Part shown: positions 35,136 to 51,167 of the stretch, in pieces
Layout: the number at the start of each line of letters is the position of its first letter
Position numbering within the stretch: position 1 is the stretch's first letter
From: Synergistota bacterium
GTDB lineage: Bacteria; Synergistota; Synergistia; Synergistales; 79-D21
DNA: 64,000 nucleotides
Assembly: GCA_022839995.1 (NCBI GenBank)
Contig: JALHIN010000002.1
Span: forward strand, 44,983 to 108,982
Direction: 5' to 3'
The notes under the pieces: model-generated
Databases searched by the model: none
Told to the model about the DNA's origin: nothing
What the model saw: only the letters and a program-made list of their open reading frames with translations
Program-made: the position numbers and the translations under genes

Positions 35136-35160
35136 AGCACCTAGCCGCCCGTGGTAAGAT
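35132..35160 (+). promoter_or_regulatory. Putative sigma70-type promoter of the (now truncated) chromosomal tRNA-Arg copy
   Basis: TTGAAG (35132-35137), a 17-nt spacer, then TGgTAAGAT extended -10 (35152-60), ending 15 nt before tRNA position 1. Confidence 0.35.
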
Positions 35161-35222
35161 ATCCGTCGTTCCGGTGGGCCCGTAGCTCAGGTGGATAGAG
35201 CGACGGCCTCCTAAGCCGTAGG
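35146..35222 (+). repeat. attL: 77-bp direct repeat (copy 1)
   Basis: Base-for-base identical to 42070-42146. Comprises 30 bp of upstream sequence plus tRNA-Arg positions 1-47. Confidence 0.95.
35176..35222 (+). pseudogene. Truncated tRNA-Arg(CCU) remnant (5' 47 nt only)
   Basis: Acceptor 5' strand, D arm and anticodon arm are present. The sequence diverges after ...GCCGTAGG, so there is no T arm or 3' acceptor strand. Confidence 0.9.
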
Positions 35223-36496: not shown

Positions 36497-36703
36497 ATGA
36501 CGATTCTTAGAGCCCTGAGGATGGAGCGTAGGCTCCCCATCGTAGAGATTGCCTTCCATGTGGGAATGGACGACGGGACCTACAGCAAGGCGGAGCGTGG
36601 GTTCAAGCGATTCCCTGAGCGGGTGCGGGAAAGAGTTGCCGGTTTCTTCGGTGTGGAACAGGGTGAGCTTTTCGAGGAGTCGGGCTATGCCCGAAAAAAC
36701 TAA
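36497..36703 (+). CDS. XRE/Cro-type helix-turn-helix regulator
   Basis: 68 aa: MTILRALRMERRLPIVEIAFHVGMDDGTYSKAERGFKRFPERV. AAAGGAGGTG lies 6 nt upstream of the ATG at 36497. It is divergent from the 357-aa gene. Confidence 0.7.
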   Translation: MTILRALRMERRLPIVEIAFHVGMDDGTYSKAERGFKRFPERVRERVAGFFGVEQGELFEESGYARKN

Positions 36704-37541
36704 CCCCCGGACGGGACCGGGGGAAAGAAAGGGTGAAAACTTTATGACAAACTATAACTGCAATGAGCATACAACCAGCAAGCCTATCATGTCAACCTTC
36801 GACGGGTCTCCGGTAGTGGTGGGAAGGTACGACGAGAAATCCCGCTCCTTCCTGAACATCGTGAAAGCATCGGACCGGTTCAGGACTCACGACGCCTACG
36901 GCTTCGACGAGCCCGCCGTGGAGGAGTTGAAGAAGTTGGGTTGCCTGGAGATCGAGCTACAGATTACCGGAGGCAACCGGTACCGGATCGATTTTCAGAC
37001 CTTCCTGAAGCAGGCCCGCCGGATCGATTGGCCTAAACGGGGTGAAACTCGCTTCCCAGCAAGGCTGTATGTTCCCATGAGCTTCTGGCAAGTCGTCCAG
37101 GATGAGGTTGAAATGCCGGCGGTCATGGAAGAGCCGTCTGGAATGGACGACGGGAACCAGGAAGGATTGCCTCTGGTTGAAGAGCCGGTTCTGGCTACGC
37201 TTTTTGACGAGAATTCCCTTCGTGCCGTGAACCTCCTGGTCATCGGCTGGGGGTGGATCGGTGGAGAAGCCAACGGCTATCCCCCGCGTTTTCGGGCCAC
37301 AATACATTGTGACCAGTGTTCCACGATGTTCGAATCCGAAGTTCCCCATTTCGATTCCTGTCCGAATTGTGGAGCTCCCACCAGGCAAATGCATTGTTGC
37401 TGTATAGATGTTCTTCCAATCCCTCCAAAGAGGAAATACGTTTTACAAAAAGAACACTTAATCATGGATTCCAAGAAAGAGGACGAATCTCTCGAAGTGA
37501 TCCTGGCCGCAAGGCCGGTTAAAGAAGGTGTGGCGGCATGA
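36687..37541 (+). CDS. Orphan protein with C-terminal Cys4 zinc ribbon (element cargo)
   Basis: CDQC-x13-CPNC followed by HCCC. The start could be ATG 36687 (GAGGAG 7 nt upstream) or ATG 36744. I recognise no family. Confidence 0.55.
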   Translation: MPEKTNPRTGPGERKGENFMTNYNCNEHTTSKPIMSTFDGSPVVVGRYDEKSRSFLNIVKASDRFRTHDAYGFDEPAVEELKKLGCLEIELQITGGNRYRIDFQTFLKQARRIDWPKRGETRFPARLYVPMSFWQVVQDEVEMPAVMEEPSGMDDGNQEGLPLVEEPVLATLFDENSLRAVNLLVIGWGWIGGEANGYPPRFRATIHCDQCSTMFESEVPHFDSCPNCGAPTRQMHCCCIDVLPIPPKRKYVLQKEHLIMDSKKEDESLEVILAARPVKEGVAA

Positions 37542-38335
37542 CCTCCACCCTTGAGGCCGAAAAGAGCTTCAGCCTCGACGAGGCCCTGAAGGTCTGCGAT
37601 TCCCTGCGGGCCCAGGGTCTTCCTGAAAGCGTCATCCAGAATTTCCAGAAATATGCTGGCTGTGACACCCCACCCCTGGAGCTTCTCCGACAGGAATTCG
37701 GCCTCCCTGTGCAAGCCATCGCCCAGGTAGGAAGATCCGCGGACGCCGAGATCCTCCTGACCCTCCAGGACGGTTCACAGGTGAGCCTCGGAAGCGTCAG
37801 CGACATTCACGCCTTCCGGAAGGTGAAGGAAAGGCTGTTCGCGGAAAACGGCCTGGTCCTTCGCTCGGGACTTCGTAAACAGTGGGACGGGATCCTGAAG
37901 GCCATTGCCCAGCTCAAGACCGTGATCGAGGCACCGGATGCGGACAGGGACCTTTTGATGACGGCCCTGAACGACATCTGGAGGAATTCCTTCCGGATCG
38001 GGGCCGAATACGTCCAAGGCAGCACGTCCCTCAGCCTGAACCTGGACGACGAACGAAACGAGGACGCCGTCGTCCTGACCCTGGAAACGTCCGAGAAAGG
38101 GCTCAAGACGCCCGCGGGCCGCCTGATCGTCCGGACCACGAGCATCATCCGCCGCCTGAGCCTCTGCGAGGTGGCCCAGGTGAGCCGGAAGGTCGTCACC
38201 AGGGAGTTGTGCAAGATCGGCTTCACGGCGATACGCGTGAACCTGGCAGGCAAAAGGATCGGGACAGGGGCCCGCGATCAGGTGAGGGCATGGGTTTCGC
38301 CTGCGGAATTCGACAGGGTGCTTAGGGGGCTGTGA
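37538..38335 (+). CDS. Orphan 265-aa protein (element cargo)
   Basis: ATGA overlap with the upstream ORF. The C-terminal segment SRKVVTRELCKIGFTAIRVNLAGKRIGTGARDQVRAWV is reminiscent of the C-terminal tails of phage/plasmid replication proteins, but it has no Walker A motif. Confidence 0.55.
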   Translation: MTSTLEAEKSFSLDEALKVCDSLRAQGLPESVIQNFQKYAGCDTPPLELLRQEFGLPVQAIAQVGRSADAEILLTLQDGSQVSLGSVSDIHAFRKVKERLFAENGLVLRSGLRKQWDGILKAIAQLKTVIEAPDADRDLLMTALNDIWRNSFRIGAEYVQGSTSLSLNLDDERNEDAVVLTLETSEKGLKTPAGRLIVRTTSIIRRLSLCEVAQVSRKVVTRELCKIGFTAIRVNLAGKRIGTGARDQVRAWVSPAEFDRVLRGL

Positions 38336-38336
38336 C

Positions 38337-38521
38337 CCCCTATAGTACCCCACTTTTTTTTCTTGCCGAAAAAGGGTCTGTCACACGTCATTCTGTCACA
38401 GAAGAAGGGAAAAACCTTGGTAGCACTACCTTCCACAAGTGACAGATTGTGACGAAAGAGAACCTTCTAAAGATAGTCCAGATTTTTAAGAAGAAAGAAA
38501 AGAAGTGGGGTACTATAGGGG
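38337..38521. repeat. Nested-palindrome/iteron module in the element's largest intergenic gap
   Basis: 19-bp perfect inverted repeat CCCCTATAGTACCCCACTT (38337-55) / AAGTGGGGTACTATAGGGG (38503-21). Inside it: TGTCAC at 38379 and 38394, GTGACA at 38439, GTGAC at 38449, a central GGTAGcaCTACC (38419-30), and flanking T9 and polypurine tracts. Confidence 0.85.
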
Positions 38522-38648
38522 CTTTTTGAATTATGAGAGCCCCTAAAGGGGAAGCGGGTGTGACCTGATGGGGGGTGTGGGTCTTCTACGGAGTTCTTGC
38601 TGTGAACCGGCGGTTTCCCCATTCTCATAGAAAGGGGCGGTCCAGGCT

Positions 38649-39158
38649 GTGAATCCCTTCGAGACAAGGCGAAAGCTTGCGGATCTGATCCAGGTGGTTG
38701 CGGAGCTTCATCCTCTAGGCGTGAACCTCCTGGAGAATCCCGTGGGGCTCGATGCGGCGGCATTGGCCGAGTGGGTGAAGGCCTTGGGTAGCGGTGGGGA
38801 AGCGGGCGGCTCCCGAAGGTCTCCGAATGAAAAGGCGAAGAGTCTGGAGAATCTCCTGGCTTCCTGTGTGGACCTCCTGGAGGAAATCGGAGGGTGGAGC
38901 AGGGTTGTAAGCGCGGTGAAGGTTCTGAAGCAGGGATACCCCGTCGATTGGAGGGTCTTCCGGGATTATTGGGACCTGACGGCATCGGTGGGGAAGTTCT
39001 CACGCCTTGGGAGCGAAACAATTATTGACCGAGTGGCCCGCAGGAACGGTGTGTCAGTCCCTACGGTGTACCGGAAGCGCGACCAGGTTCCTGAAAGGAT
39101 AGCGATAATCACGATGCGCTTGAATCCGGACGAAGGCCCGGGAAAAGTTTCGATCTAG
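38649..39158 (+). CDS. Orphan protein with C-terminal HTH (excisionase/resolvase-HTH-like)
   Basis: 169 aa. The C-terminal IIDRVARRNGVSVPTVYRKRDQV has the typical 'GVSxxTVYR' HTH pattern. GTG start with a weak RBS, so the start is uncertain. Confidence 0.5.
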   Translation: MNPFETRRKLADLIQVVAELHPLGVNLLENPVGLDAAALAEWVKALGSGGEAGGSRRSPNEKAKSLENLLASCVDLLEEIGGWSRVVSAVKVLKQGYPVDWRVFRDYWDLTASVGKFSRLGSETIIDRVARRNGVSVPTVYRKRDQVPERIAIITMRLNPDEGPGKVSI

Positions 39159-39170
39159 GAGGTGGCATGA

Positions 39171-39614
39171 ATGTTTGGAATGAGGCAGAACCAGGGTATT
39201 ACGTTGCAAAAGGGGAAGCTTGAAACGAATCGGCCGGCGGTGTGTCGTGTGGAAGTGACCCCTCCCCGGCGGAATCTTCCTGTTCTGTGGCGGATCTGTA
39301 ATCGGTGTGACCAGACCGGAATCGACAAGATGAAAGGGTTCCCTCAACGGTGCCCGGAATGCGGCGGAAAGGGAATCATCCTGACTGAAGACGGGAAGGC
39401 TATCCTGGAGCTTCTGGAAGTCGTGGAATCCCATTCTCCCGTGACGGACGGGCAGGTTCAGAAAGCGTTCGAGAAGGACCAGGCAGAACGACAGGAAAGG
39501 GAAAGGCAGAGAGAAGAGCAGCGGAAGGCGGAAGAGGAGCGAGAGAAGAAGGTGCGGAAAGCCTTGGAGAAATTGGTAAAGGCAGGCTTCAGCCCTGACG
39601 AACTCCTGCGGTGA
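39171..39614 (+). CDS. Orphan zinc-finger protein (CxxC...CxxCxGxG) with charged C-terminal tail
   Basis: CNRCDQTG...CPECGGKG (DnaJ-type finger pattern), then a QERERQREEQRKAEEEREKK tail. AGGAGGTG lies 6 nt upstream. Confidence 0.55.
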   Translation: MFGMRQNQGITLQKGKLETNRPAVCRVEVTPPRRNLPVLWRICNRCDQTGIDKMKGFPQRCPECGGKGIILTEDGKAILELLEVVESHSPVTDGQVQKAFEKDQAERQERERQREEQRKAEEEREKKVRKALEKLVKAGFSPDELLR

Positions 39615-39648
39615 GGGGAATTTTTACAATTTATTGAGCGTAAAAAAA

Positions 39649-39678
39649 GGGGGACACGAAAAAGCTGTCCCTTTTTTT
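39649..39678 (+). terminator. Rho-independent terminator ending the element's rightward operon
   Basis: Stem GGGACA/TGTCCC (extendable by G-U pairs), a 9-nt loop, then T7. An A7 run upstream makes it look bidirectional. Confidence 0.6.
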
Positions 39679-39857
39679 ATGCTTATATTATCTGTATGTA
39701 GTTATATTGTGTAGATAGATACTTTTGGAACATAAGGTTTTCCCCGATAGACAGTTTGAAGGATTGGGAAGATATTAACTACAAGAAGGAGAGCAAATCG
39801 CGTTAGGGCTTTAGTATTCATAACTAACACTATACATACTCAGAGGAGGGAATAGCA

Positions 39858-40393
39858 ATGAATGGCGTATCACATCTTGACGTTTTCCAACGGCTTTTGC
39901 TTTTAAACCAATTTATGATATTAAGGTTTTAGACGATGAAAACAAAGGTGATTACAAGCTAATGGAAGAGATTTTAAGAATGGGTTATGTTAAAGAGTAT
40001 GACGAAGTATTTTCTATTTATGAAGAGTTGCCGTTAGCTAGATGTAATAGAGTATGGGATATTTTATCGATGGCCGATGCCATTTATTTAGCCTGCGAGA
40101 CTGCGAGTAAAGAAGAAATCGAAGCTCTTGAGGAAGACCCTTGGTTCTTCAAGGGTTTTGATGGTAATAACGAGACGGCAGAACTACTTTATTGCAAGTT
40201 TATTATTGAAAAAATGGAACGGTTCACTCATCTTAAGAATAAAATGCCAAAGAATACTGACTTTAACACCCATTTTCCAACGAATTTTCGTTATGATCCT
40301 ATGCTTTCTATGTGGAAAAGCTTGCCGACAAGCGATCGCTGTAAATTATCCATGGAAAATGTAAAGAAAATATTGAATAGTTTAAATAAATAA
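39858..40393 (+). pseudogene. yfbU: YfbU (UPF0304) family gene interrupted by a 1-nt frameshift
   Basis: ATG at 39858 (AGAGGAGGG 7 nt upstream) reads MNGVSHLDVFQRLLLLNQFMIL, then hits TAG at 39930. Shifting frame at ~39923 continues KVLDDENKGDYKLMEEILRMGY... into track ORF 39962-40393. The joined sequence aligns colinearly with E. coli YfbU ([43 protein letters not shown]...YTHF) from memory. Confidence 0.7.
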
Positions 40394-40442
40394 TTGTTTA
40401 TTTATTGGACTTAATATTCATATTCGCAACTTTTGAGGACAC

Positions 40443-40475
40443 AAAAGGGCAAGCCCTCGCGGGCCTGCCCTTTTT
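40443..40475. terminator. Bidirectional rho-independent terminator between yfbU and the 121-aa gene
   Basis: Stem GGGCAAGCCC/GGGCCTGCCC (one mismatch), loop TCGC, flanked by A4 upstream and T5 downstream. Confidence 0.65.
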
Positions 40476-40487
40476 CTGACCTCACCG

Positions 40488-40853
40488 TTAGATTCTTTTC
40501 TCCAGGAGCTTAAGGATGCGTCCCACCTCCTTATCCTGCCCCGAGATCTTCTGCACCGTGACCAGGACGCTGTGGGCGAGCTTCAGAAGATCCGCGGCTA
40601 TGTCGATCTTCGGGTCCTTCAGCATGGCCTCCATGACACCCCAGGCCTTGCTGTTCAAACGCTGTTCCACATCCTCCAGGAGTTCCTTGATCTTCGGATC
40701 ATCGAGGGGGTCCCCGATTTCCCGCAAAAGTTCCTCGTGGTTTTTCTGTGCTTCCTCCAGGAGAGCATCGAGGTTCGGGGCGGTGCTTTCCAGGTCCTCC
40801 AGAAGGTGTTCGAAACGGTCCTTTTGCTTTTGTGTGGCTCTTCTCATTGTCAT
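40488..40853 (-). CDS. Orphan acidic all-helical 121-aa protein downstream of the integrase
   Basis: AAGGAGGG RBS; the second ATG (40847) has the better spacing. K/E/D/L-rich. I recognise no family. Confidence 0.55.
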   Translation of the reverse strand: MTMRRATQKQKDRFEHLLEDLESTAPNLDALLEEAQKNHEELLREIGDPLDDPKIKELLEDVEQRLNSKAWGVMEAMLKDPKIDIAADLLKLAHSVLVTVQKISGQDKEVGRILKLLEKRI

Positions 40854-40951
40854 TCCCTCCTTCGACTTCTCAGGACGCCCTAGGAACCCCTTGTCATGGT
40901 TGCCGGCGGGTAGTTCCTTCCTCTTCGCGATTGATGACCGCTTCTGAAGGC

Positions 40952-41911
40952 TCAGCGACGGGCATCCCCCCTTTGCAGGGACCTGAGACGGGGCTTCCCC
41001 TCGGTTTTCAGCAAGCTGTTAAGCGGGCTGGCCTTGGAGTGTGCTTCCCTGAGGTCGTCATCGGACAGGGCAAGATAGCGTTTCGTCATGTCCAGGTTGG
41101 AATGGCCCATTTCCCTTTGAAGGGCGAAGAGGTTTCCGTTGTTCCTCAGGAACATGATGGCGTGACAATGGCGGAGGTCGTAAGGGCTGATCTTCACTCC
41201 AAGGCGTTTTCCGTACACCTTCTTTAACCGGTAGCCCCAGGAGTTGATCCGGTAGGATTCGCCTTCGTCGCTGCAGAAGATCGGAGATCCCTGCCAAGCC
41301 TCTGGACGGACGGCAAGCAGGCGAGAGATGGCCTGGCTGCAAATCCTGGAAATGACGAGGGTTCGGGCCCTTCGAGTCTTCGAGACTTCCGGGCGGATAT
41401 GAACCTCAAAGCCCGCAGGATTGAAGTCGCAGGGGTAGAGTTGGAGGGCTTCCCCCGGGCGGATCCCCGTATCGAGTTGGAGAAGGAGCAGGGCCTTGTC
41501 CCGTAGACCGGCGAAGGTCCCCGTATCCGGGAGATCGAGAAGCCGCTGGAGCACGTCGGGGGCGATCCGCACGATGCGGGGCTCGGCGTGCCTGGCCTTT
41601 ATCCCCTCGATCGGGTTCTGGTGGAGCAATCCTTCTTCCCTGGCCCAGTCGAAGAAGACCTTGAGATACTTCCTTCTTATATTGAATGTGGCCGGTGCCA
41701 CATTTTCCCCCAGGTACCGGTAGACACAGGCGTTCAGCGTGGACGTTCCCCAGGCCTCGGGGTAGCGTGTGAAGAAGCGGACGACATGGACCCGATAGTC
41801 CTTCAGCGTCCTGTCTGAAAGGCCGGTGGCCGTCCTCCACAGAAGAAAGGCCTCCAGGGCATCCTCCCAGGTCTCATAGCACGGCTTTCGAAGCGGAACA
41901 ACGTTTTGCAT
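40952..41911 (-). CDS. int: Tyrosine-type site-specific recombinase/integrase
   Basis: 319 aa. N-terminal SAM-like core-binding domain and a catalytic domain with R (DTGIRPGE), HxxR (YDLRHCHA), H (MGHSNL) and Y (TKRYL). Confidence 0.9.
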   Translation of the reverse strand: MQNVVPLRKPCYETWEDALEAFLLWRTATGLSDRTLKDYRVHVVRFFTRYPEAWGTSTLNACVYRYLGENVAPATFNIRRKYLKVFFDWAREEGLLHQNPIEGIKARHAEPRIVRIAPDVLQRLLDLPDTGTFAGLRDKALLLLQLDTGIRPGEALQLYPCDFNPAGFEVHIRPEVSKTRRARTLVISRICSQAISRLLAVRPEAWQGSPIFCSDEGESYRINSWGYRLKKVYGKRLGVKISPYDLRHCHAIMFLRNNGNLFALQREMGHSNLDMTKRYLALSDDDLREAHSKASPLNSLLKTEGKPRLRSLQRGDARR

Positions 41912-42055: not shown

Positions 42056-42084
42056 TTGCCCGGACGGAACGCCCGTGGTAAGAT
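42056..42084 (+). promoter_or_regulatory. Putative promoter of the intact tRNA-Arg, with the -35 on element-side DNA
   Basis: TTGCCC (42056-61), a 17-nt spacer, then TGgTAAGAT (42076-84). The -10 lies within the repeat and the -35 lies outside it. Confidence 0.35.
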
Positions 42085-42146
42085 ATCCGTCGTTCCGGTG
42101 GGCCCGTAGCTCAGGTGGATAGAGCGACGGCCTCCTAAGCCGTAGG
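42070..42146 (+). repeat. attR: 77-bp direct repeat (copy 2)
   Basis: Identical to 35146-35222. Confidence 0.95.
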
Positions 42147-42176
42147 TCGCCAGTTCGAGTCTGGCCGGGCCCGCCA
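42100..42176 (+). tRNA. tRNA-Arg (anticodon CCU), CCA encoded
   Basis: Hand-folded cloverleaf: acceptor GGGCCCG/CGGGCCC, D arm GCTC/GAGC, anticodon arm ACGGC-CTCCTAA-GCCGT, T arm GCCAG-TTCGAGT-CTGGC, discriminator G, CCA. Confidence 0.9.
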
Positions 42177-50392: not shown

Positions 50393-50467
50393 GGGGCTGT
50401 GGCGCAGTGGGAGCGCGATTCCTTCGCACGGAATAGGCCAGGGGTTCGAATCCCCTCAGCTCCACCA
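50393..50467 (+). tRNA. tRNA-Ala (CGC)
   Basis: Hand fold: acceptor GGGGCTG/CAGCTCC with the G3:U70 identity pair, anticodon loop TTCGCAC, T loop TTCGAAT, CCA encoded. Confidence 0.85.
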
Positions 50468-50503
50468 GGATATCGATCTTGACTCTGTTATCATAGAGAG
50501 CGT

Positions 50504-50581
50504 CGGGGCGTAGCGCAGCCTGGTCAGCGCACCTGCTTTGGGAGCAGGGTGTCGAAGGTTCGAATCCTTTCGCCCCGACCA
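50504..50581 (+). tRNA. tRNA-Pro (UGG)
   Basis: Acceptor CGGGGCG/CGCCCCG, anticodon arm CCTGC-TTTGGGA-GCAGG, T loop TTCGAAT, CCA. Confidence 0.85.
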
Positions 50582-50602
50582 CCCTGAAGCTTAGCGGAAA
50601 AC

Positions 50603-50679
50603 GCGGGAATAGCTCAGCTGGCTAGAGCGATGGCCTTCCAAGCCGTAGGTCGCGGGTTCGAATCCCGTTTCCCGCTCCA
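50603..50679 (+). tRNA. tRNA-Gly (UCC)
   Basis: Acceptor GCGGGAA/TTCCCGC, anticodon loop CTTCCAA, discriminator U, CCA. Confidence 0.85.
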
Positions 50680-50690
50680 AAGAAATATAG

Positions 50691-50767
<77 letters not shown>

Positions 50768-50793
50768 CTTGGGAACAATGAAGGATTGGAGCC

Positions 50794-50871
50794 GGTGAGC
50801 GTAGCTCAATTGGTCAGAGCACTGGACTGTGGCTCCAGTGGTTGGGGGTTCAAGTCCCCTCGCTCACCCCA
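50794..50871 (+). tRNA. tRNA-His (GUG) with encoded G-1
   Basis: An extra 5' G opposite discriminator C, acceptor GTGAGCG/CGCTCAC, anticodon loop CTGTGGC, CCA. Confidence 0.85.
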
Positions 50872-50888
50872 AATTGAAGGCGGGACGT

Positions 50889-50964
50889 GCGCCCGTAGCT
50901 CAGTGGACAGAGCGGCGGACTTCGGATCCGTTGGTCGCGGGTTCAAATCCTGCCGGGCGCGCCA
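50889..50964 (+). tRNA. tRNA-Arg (UCG)
   Basis: Acceptor GCGCCCG/CGGGCGC, anticodon arm GCGGA-CTTCGGA-TCCGT, CCA. Confidence 0.8.
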
Positions 50965-50995
50965 GCCAATATAAAACCGAATATCGAGTTGCTGT

Positions 50996-51071
50996 GGACC
51001 GTTAGCTCAACTGGCAGAGCACCTGACTCTTAATCAGGGGGTTACAGGTTCGATTCCTGTACGGTCCACCA
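50996..51071 (+). tRNA. tRNA-Lys (CUU)
   Basis: Acceptor GGACCGT/ACGGTCC, anticodon arm CCTGA-CTCTTAA-TCAGG, CCA. Confidence 0.85.
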
Positions 51072-51082
51072 TTTTTTTTCCG

Positions 51083-51167
51083 GCGAGAGTGGTGGAACTG
51101 GTAGACACGCTGGACTTAGGATCCAGTGGCGAAAGCCTTGCGGGTTCAAGTCCCGCCTCTCGCACCA
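51083..51167 (+). tRNA. tRNA-Leu (UAG), long variable arm
   Basis: Acceptor GCGAGAG/CTCTCGC, anticodon loop CTTAGGA, variable arm TGGCGAAAGCCTTGC, CCA. Confidence 0.85.

Follow-up and report, generated by a model that had tools for sequence, protein, structure and literature searches.

A conserved palindrome-framed module beside a Prim-Pol-related gene as a candidate replication origin of an integrative element in Synergistaceae

Introduction

In replicons of the ColE2 and P4 types, a plasmid- or satellite-specific primase/initiator binds a short origin beside its own gene via a C-terminal DNA-binding domain. The origin of the Staphylococcus aureus pathogenicity islands (SaPIs) lies directly downstream of rep; its iterons, two or more on either flank of an A+T-rich region and in opposite directions, are read by a C-terminal winged helix (PMC9371898). 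The origin candidate of pRN1 is a stem-loop of ~100 nt downstream of the Prim-Pol replication gene, and replication depends on it; related phage genes are followed by similar stem-loops, which have been proposed for the Bordetella phages BIP-1 and BPP-1, and the pRN1-family operon combines a small repressor with a Prim-Pol-type replication protein bearing a C-terminal winged helix (PMC4234260). In the oriV of RSF1010 (incompatibility group Q, IncQ), two inverted 40-nt priming signals place the same signal on each strand (PMC8567376). Here we describe a 185-bp module framed by inverted repeats (38337–38521) in a 6.9-kb integrative element of a Synergistota bacterium, located in a 64-kb stretch of contig JALHIN010000002.1 (assembly GCA_022839995.1); this whole stretch is called the window, and coordinates are positions in it unless another locus is named. 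The module is a real, conserved cis-element beyond chance expectation, and we lean, if only slightly, toward its being the replication origin of the element, or at any rate the DNA site recognized by the initiator-like protein encoded there.

Results

Architecture and rarity of the module

The module begins 1 nt past the stop codon of a 265-aa gene (37538–38335, plus strand) and is framed by a perfect 19-bp inverted repeat, whose arms (38337–38355 and 38503–38521) enclose 147 nt. The left arm reads CCCCTATAGTACCCCACTT and the right arm is its exact reverse complement; with one mismatch, the repeat grows to 24 nt at 96% identity (left arm 38337–38360, perfect to 38355; right arm 38498–38521, perfect from 38503). 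Between the arms, two direct copies of TCTGTCACA lie 15 bp apart (38377–38385 and 38392–38400; TGTGACAGA when read on the minus strand), followed by two plus-strand sites of opposite orientation, aGTGACAGA and TTGTGACGA, placed 10 bp apart (38438–38455, with GTGACA at 38439 and GTGAC at 38449). The 19-bp repeat, the two direct copies and the GTGACA and GTGAC sites had been listed in a sequence-only reading of the stretch and were seen again when the sequence was re-read. Another TGTGAC site (38331–38336, plus strand) overlaps the TGA stop codon of the 265-aa gene, as it also does in the related loci L137 and L010, and an extra copy lies outside the arms (38559–38564, plus strand), with TGTGAA at 38601 and 38648. 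The two ends of the intergenic gap are also alike, GGCTGTGACCCCCT at the stop of the 265-aa gene (38328–38341) sharing 12 of 14 bases with GGCTGTGAATCCCT at the GTG start of the following 169-aa gene (38645–38658).

CCCC-type blocks are found in both arms, GACCCCC and GTACCCC on the left and GGGGTAC and TAGGGGC on the right; the left pair, formed by the arm together with 38334–38340, is 11 bp apart. Read beside the distant loci described below, the two blocks within each arm may form a pair spaced by one helical turn, much like the repeats of the distant locus L147. A T8 tract (38354–38361), previously read as T9 (38354–38362), is followed by C and then by an A5 run (38370–38374). The most A+T-rich block (38450–38500; 30–33% sliding G+C vs. 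58% for the window) is a candidate DNA-unwinding region and holds the invariant CTAAAGATAGTCCAGATTTTTA and an 18-nt all-purine run, which exists as described earlier but occupies 38488–38505, one base off the 38489–38506 first given. The small central palindrome GGTAGcaCTACC (38419–38430) is present too, but it is not conserved, with GGTAAC...CTACC or GATAAC...CTCAC in relatives, so that it is probably incidental. Past the right arm come a CTTTTT run and the second half of a hairpin (38522–38548, plus strand), this hairpin (38513–38523 with 38538–38548) sharing the right arm. The gap itself (38336–38648, 313 nt) had been taken for the longest non-coding one of the element, a place that belongs to 39615–39961 (347 nt). 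The G+C content is 42% in the module, 53% in the element and 58% in the window.

The 17-nt arm sequence occurs at these two places only in the window (shuffle mean 0.01 matches), and the inverted repeat of the module ranks first among those within 400 bp across the whole 64 kb, a perfect 19-bp repeat of this kind having a chance of ~1e-4 by our own estimate. Five of the 20 window copies of TGTGAC fall within 38320–38660, where ~0.1 would be expected (Poisson P ~1e-7, again our estimate); TCTGTCACA with one mismatch allowed showed no window-wide enrichment. The 185 nt also fold far better than expected, with z of -9.1 as RNA of the plus strand, -7.8 as RNA of the minus strand and -7.1 as DNA, and with energies of -77.1 (plus) vs. 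-73.1 kcal/mol (minus) and a closing stem of 28 bp counting G-U pairs. In four loci (the window, L010, L137 and L140), it is the arms that close the fold, z ranging from -7.1 to -3.0.

Conservation in close relatives

Related loci were recovered on contigs of Synergistaceae/Synergistales metagenome-assembled genomes (MAGs) and metagenomes; the genome-contig scan with protein alignment yielded two near-identical Synergistaceae MAGs only. The module stands at the stop of the 265-aa gene in 18 of 18 related loci, comprising 17 close ones and one (L137) whose protein is 44% identical, and in every one of them, as in the window, it starts 1 nt past the stop codon. Its interior has the same orientation relative to both flanks in 17/17 independent close assemblies. 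The sequence-only reading had held that a lack of these repeats in related elements would speak against it; the arms and sites are kept in the close loci and in L137. The islands that are invariant among close relatives are the arms, CTGTCACACGTCATT, TTGTGAC and CTAAAGATAGTCCAGATTTTTA, and the core TAGTACCCC of the left arm is invariant in all relatives including L137. The first of the opposite-orientation sites varies (ATGACA) in some close relatives, and L014 and L010 share an uncompensated T>C in the left arm only. Overall, the module interior diverges somewhat faster than the upstream coding sequence (78% vs. 89% identity in L010), and the 15-bp spacing of the direct repeats is kept in L010 as in L137.

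Beyond these loci, no DNA similarity to plasmids or phages was found. A metagenome scan with an arm 15-mer returned at least 120 stretches, nearly all by chance, and among the matches listed only L085 shares module and flank; an arm-pair scan of viral contigs gave three chance matches and one unrelated palindromic array, and the protein-alignment scan nothing. That array (L143 100–400, IMGVR_UViG_3300028653_000298) is built of palindromic units GGGGTACTACAAT..ATTGTAGTACCCC with TTCTAAAATTAGAA between them and was picked up via a shared TAGTACCCC only.

The distant relative L137

L137 was found via P0011, the 44% identical homologue of the 265-aa protein, in an exhaustive phmmer search, and it carries an HTH (helix-turn-helix) gene, a zinc-ribbon protein that is 37% identical to that of the window, and the 265-aa homologue. 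Compared with those of the window, its arms, AAAAAGCCTCTATTAGTACCCC and GGGGTACTAATAGGCGGTTTTT, have each gained one base, and the two extra bases are complementary (TATAG>TATTAG in the left arm, CTATAG>CTAATAG in the right); complementarity is incomplete in the outer 4–5 bp. Two GTCACA sites exactly 15 bp apart and an inverted GTGACA follow in the same motif order as in the window. In place of T8, L137 has A7 runs on the same strand, which cannot pair with the purine run opposite, so that the inner stem extension is lost; since T8 is replaced by same-strand A7, the A/T tract is kept whichever strand carries it, which fits a property of double-stranded DNA over one of a transcript. Past the module, L137 has a terminator-like hairpin (AGAACG..CGTTCT TTTAT), ~320 nt of non-coding DNA and unrelated genes, among which, as far as compared, neither the 169-aa nor the 147-aa gene of the window has a counterpart. 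The module thus persists next to a different set of downstream genes, and comparison of the two loci indicates that it goes with the gene upstream and not with the gene downstream. The stretch downstream of the module in L137 (3890–7693) encodes a 1267-aa protein with no Pfam match.

The 265-aa protein next to the module

No Pfam, PHROG or NCBIfam match was obtained for the 265-aa protein, nor any significant Protein Data Bank (PDB) match by sequence or profile, and tblastn against phage records gave nothing. The exhaustive phmmer search against 1.84 billion representatives returned 21 matches, including Prim-Pol+PriCT_1 proteins of 480–492 aa that align via their C-terminal ~200 residues (E 1.8e-7 and 4.5e-7) and a protein with the NrS-1 polymerase helix-bundle domain (NrS-1-HBD). 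In a Foldseek search against the viral models of BFVD, the protein matched a 572-aa 'DNA primase small subunit' (E 1.4e-6). Judged by these alignments, the homology of the 265-aa protein to Prim-Pol/PriCT_1 replication proteins concerns their C-terminal, non-catalytic part. Its AlphaFold2 (AF2) model, with a predicted local distance difference test score (pLDDT) of 82, has two helices and a beta-hairpin at the C-terminus, so that the protein is predicted to end in a winged helix, and the family alignment shows a conserved L-x3-GF ... W pattern at this unit. Only a handful of homologues of this protein, and likewise of the 169-aa protein, exist among 5.8 billion clustered proteins.

Sequence after the stop codons of distant homologues

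In a descriptive comparison, made by eye and by repeat finding without a matched control set, six loci including L137 were read past the stop codon of the homologous gene. Among the five that are more distant than L137, four have sets of inverted short repeats, or an inverted repeat around direct repeats, at or near the stop codon, and the GTCACA core of the window recurs in one of the five (L146). L146 has three GTCACAT copies at 9-bp spacing, starting 23 nt past the stop, with an inverted ATGTGAC in the end of the gene. L147 has TGACCCCAG and TGTCCCCAG over the stop, an A+T-rich spacer with T6, and then several inverted copies of GGGGAC, while 33-nt inverted arms containing TATATA enclose direct AAGCGTCRCA repeats in L140. 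In L141, GCCACG-TGA-GCCACGGTATCCACG is followed by an A+T-richer spacer and then by CCGTGGATT three times and more copies, giving a layout of three to four CCACG, spacer and three CGTGG; 12 of the 27 CCACG/CGTGG copies of this locus fall within 370 bp. The same locus shows the split layout of the window with the primase half present, a 275-aa Prim-Pol+PriCT_1 gene overlapping the start of the 241-aa homologue. Across loci, the module lies 0–23 nt from the upstream stop and 126 to 530 nt from the next gene.

The integrative element and its cargo

The element is bounded by a 77-bp perfect direct repeat (35146–35222 and 42070–42146, spaced 6,924 bp apart) in which the 5′ half of tRNA-Arg(CCT) is preceded by 30 nt of upstream sequence. 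The first copy (attL, plus strand) forms the left boundary, and the second (attR, plus strand) lies within the intact tRNA-Arg(CCT) (tRNA 42100–42176). Since the repeat duplicates this part of the gene, the element appears to have entered the tRNA gene in its 5′ part or anticodon region; the integrase gene adjoins the intact tRNA copy. Where flanks are present, relatives share the same insertion site, between ribF and a DUF1850 gene. Elsewhere in the window, the plus strand carries a cluster of eight tRNA genes (50393–51167; Ala, Pro, Gly, Arg, His, Arg, Lys and Leu).

The gene order is a 357-aa gene (minus strand; function not assigned by family scans), the 68-aa HTH gene, the zinc-ribbon gene, the 265-aa gene, the module, the 169-aa and 147-aa genes, a YfbU-domain gene, a 121-aa gene (minus strand) and the tyrosine integrase gene. 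The Cro/CI-type HTH protein (36497–36703, plus strand; HTH_31 E 5.7e-6) is encoded by the first gene of the conserved cassette and is called with 68 aa in relatives too. The zinc-ribbon protein, also of 265 aa (36744–37541, plus strand), has a stop codon overlapping the start of the next gene and gave no above-threshold family match in Pfam, PHROG and NCBIfam scans; the idea that it is a hidden Prim-Pol was rejected, BLASTP and hhalign being negative and its poor AF2 model (pLDDT 55) matching zinc-ribbon folds only. The 169-aa gene (38649–39158, plus strand), outside the conserved module, has a weak HTH_7 match and possibly a C-terminal HTH. The 147-aa protein (39171–39614), which is kept in close relatives, has a CxxCxGxG zinc motif (anti-TRAP family E 1e-8), a lysine/glutamate-rich tail with a weak match to the H-NS N-terminal domain, and a weak antiterminator-Q match. 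The integrase (40952–41911, minus strand; Phage_integrase E 5e-20, phrog_1 E 1.8e-45) is the only recombinase recognized by the family scans in the element, which also revealed no relaxase, terminase or invertase.

The HTH gene and the 147-aa gene delimit the conserved core; what lies between this core and the integrase varies. This cargo hotspot holds YfbU in the window (39615–40900), a GmrSD-like HNH gene and an EcoRI-type methylase in L001 (7858–10034) and L007, DUF4160 and Gp49/HTH toxin-antitoxin-like genes with SecB in L010 (4365–6253), and a D12 methylase with a DUF87 ATPase in L014 (7178–11432). Just past the 147-aa gene, a 15-nt inverted repeat AGCGTAAAAAAAGGG / CCCTTTTTTTATGCT (39637–39683) looks like a two-way terminator closing the core operon. 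The element has five promoter-like sites, of which four lie close together at 39687–39942.

Two further repeats were considered and set aside. An arm-like CCCCCTAT at the HTH promoter (36436) is limited to the lineage of the window and L014 and is probably due to chance. A perfect 17-nt inverted repeat links the end of the zinc-ribbon gene (37515–37531) with the inside of the integrase gene (41215–41231), 3.7 kb apart and in different frames; it is not conserved, the plus-strand copy differing at three positions in L001 and L007, and it too is probably fortuitous.

Discussion

Of the three roles proposed in the sequence-only reading, namely replication origin, multi-operator and structured RNA, the origin is best supported, because the module stays with the upstream gene when the downstream genes change and because analogous sets of inverted repeats occupy this position in distant homologues; the operator is weaker, and the RNA gained no positive support. 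The origin, or at least the cognate site of an initiator-like protein, is suggested in the first place by the neighboring gene, at whose stop codon the module begins and whose product is related to Prim-Pol replication proteins in their C-terminal part. The HTH and zinc-finger proteins, earlier put forward as binders, are real neighbors, but the best candidate binder is the 265-aa protein itself, for which TGTGAC or the CCCC blocks are the candidate motif class.

If the module is an origin, the element might first be excised by Int, after which the 265-aa protein would bind the repeated sites on both sides. A-tracts and negative supercoiling could then help to open the A+T-rich block of 30–33% G+C, or to extrude the arms as a stem-loop. 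Because each strand carries the identical arm sequence 5′ to 3′, the opened origin would look alike to both strands, which could allow two-sided loading or priming. Helicase, primase and polymerase would be supplied by the host, a helper element or the zinc-ribbon partner and would load symmetrically.

Several points weigh against such an origin. No primase, helicase or polymerase is recognizable among the element proteins in Pfam, PHROG and NCBIfam scans, and a terminal-overlap check found no circular or episomal contig of the element among the 17 close loci. The spacer between the TGTGAC sets is moderately A+T-rich (42–45% G+C), the A+T-richest block being off-center, to the right. Foldseek against PDB gave nothing significant for the 265-aa protein (SaPIbov1 Rep, E 0.39), and this protein could be a mere DNA-binding regulator sharing a domain with replication proteins. 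The comparison of distant loci is of the uncontrolled, descriptive kind noted above, and one of its loci, L138, whose Prim-Pol is fused, has weak features, consisting of an A+T-rich stretch and two CCCTATATAT copies only.

Among other explanations, an operator or regulatory hub comes closest, although we regard it as unlikely; its sites would be bound by the HTH, 265-aa or 169-aa protein and control the 169-aa, 147-aa or cargo genes or read-through from upstream. The position of the module between two co-directional genes and the several DNA-binding proteins encoded nearby would suit this role, as would the resemblance of GTGACA/GTGACG to -35 hexamers, with a weak -10 GATAGT (38472–38477) located 17 nt past 38449–38454 within an invariant block; by our own reading, the -35/-10 pair in L010 would score 9/12. 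Nevertheless, a consensus scan predicts no sigma-70-like promoter in the gap, and neither motif class recurs conserved at the promoter of the HTH operon. Furthermore, L137 keeps the module despite unrelated downstream genes and has the terminator-like hairpin after it, and the module is always at or near the upstream stop while the distance to the next gene ranges so widely.

It is rather improbable that the module acts as RNA. In that case the upstream operon would have a structured 3′ end, with the 19-bp arms and CUUUUU making a long-range intrinsic terminator or attenuator. The plus strand does fold better than the minus strand, but good folding on both strands is expected of any DNA inverted repeat. 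Alternative pairings are possible among 38321–38331, both arms and 38538–38548, L010 and L137 keep the T4–T5 run directly past the right arm, CCCCTA-type blocks occur four times in alternating orientation, and the 147-aa protein has its weak anti-TRAP and antiterminator-Q-like matches. An intrinsic terminator, however, consists of a G+C-rich stem, a loop of few nucleotides and then a U tract, and a 'loop' of 147 nt is far beyond known examples; a terminator scan found none here. The Rfam search gave no match, only tRNAs being found in the window, and the best score in 38250–38720 came from an unrelated long non-coding RNA model (18.7 bits vs. a threshold of 70). Covariation of the arms, the check proposed in the sequence-only reading, was not found among these close relatives, the RNAalifold covariation term being unfavorable (+2.23 kcal/mol), and the arm substitutions in L014 and L010 are uncompensated. 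The loss of the inner stem extension in L137, with A-runs opposite the purine run, also argues against a transcript-level role.

Considerably less probable is another DNA site of mobile elements, such as an origin of transfer (oriT), a helper-phage packaging (pac/cos) signal or a recombinase-invertible segment. Inverted repeats flanking 100–800 bp are typical of invertible switches and also mark oriT regions, the element carries a tyrosine recombinase, and a small-terminase gene follows the homologous region in L141; against these stand the family scans negative for relaxase, terminase and invertase, the absence of any predicted promoter inside the module, and the same motif order in L137. An invertible switch was rejected outright, the single orientation in 17/17 close assemblies meaning that no flipped copy exists among these loci. 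Finally, a functionless miniature inverted-repeat transposable element (MITE) landed in the gap, which the perfect terminal repeats, the 185-bp size and a G+C content below the surroundings might evoke, can be dismissed, given flanks (GCTGTGA and CTTTTTG) with no target-site duplication, a single copy in the window, arm scans whose listed matches were nearly all due to chance, and orthologous copies that all stand at the same position past the same gene, even at 44% protein identity.

If the module is indeed an origin, it would provide a concrete origin-plus-initiator pair for uncharacterized integrative islands of Synergistaceae, bacteria represented here by metagenome-derived assemblies only, in which differing cargo, including restriction-modification genes, toxin-antitoxin genes and YfbU, occupies one hotspot. 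Origin recognition would then be the role of an unannotated C-terminal region common to many Prim-Pol/PriCT_1 proteins, and origins of such proteins could be located by searching around the stop codon for short repeats in inverted arrangement. As a speculative generalization, which we consider less likely than not, the tRNA-Arg islands of uncultured Synergistaceae, with their swappable and largely defence-type cargo, may share a minimal replicon with three parts: an origin-binding domain that has separated from Prim-Pol replicases and stands alone, a partner of the zinc-ribbon type, and an origin framed by the palindrome, in which inverted short repeats as in SaPIs are united with an extrudable stem-loop as in pRN1. 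A new zinc-ribbon activity, the host or a helper would then provide priming and unwinding. The practical value would be modest, lying in origin annotation and possibly in a replicon part for organisms without genetic tools. The current understanding of replication initiation would not change, and such an origin would be unsurprising to a replication specialist.

Comparison with known origins

ColE2- and P4-type initiators include the catalytic domain of a primase, and the module is related to their origins neither in sequence nor in layout. The IncQ origin resembles it in that RSF1010 oriV joins initiator-binding repeats, an A+T-rich segment and two inverted copies of a priming signal. RSF1010, however, has 3.5 direct 20-bp iterons, the 40-nt ssiA and ssiB, each with its own hairpin read by the RepB' primase, the RepA helicase and RepC, whereas the window repeats are 6–9 nt long, the 19-nt arms have no internal hairpin, and no Rep homologues were found in the element.

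The likeness to pRN1 lies in a stem-loop-capable region, here of 185 nt, that starts 1 nt past the stop of a gene matching the C-terminal part of Prim-Pol. Unlike its pRN1 counterpart, the 265-aa protein has neither the Prim-Pol nor the SF3 (superfamily 3) helicase domain, and the zinc-ribbon partner is not a Prim-Pol either. The pRN1 origin is described as lacking iterons, and the pRN family keeps structure and not sequence, whereas arm and site sequences are kept here without covariation, the relatives being close.

SaPIs and other phage-inducible chromosomal islands (PICIs) share more of the layout. Their likeness includes the position of the module directly after the candidate initiator gene (1 nt past the stop, with one TGTGAC over it), the GTGAC sites on the minus strand at 38380 and 38395 and on the plus strand at 38439 and 38449, hence at least two per side and opposed, the short length of the repeats (5–6 nt in SaPIs), a C-terminal winged helix, which is only predicted here, and the island itself, which is small and integrative and encodes int and a Cro/CI-type regulator. 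The differences are that SaPI Rep, a hexameric helicase of the SF3/SF6 type, loads itself and works with a primase, whereas no ATPase, helicase or primase domain was found in the 265-aa protein or any other protein of the element, that the 265-aa protein resembles SaPI Rep neither in sequence nor significantly in fold (E 0.39), and that the window repeats are also framed by 19-bp perfect arms with the A+T-richest block off-center. Within the origin reading, the site would be of a general kind already known, with a new setting in these islands and an unusual, truncated initiator.

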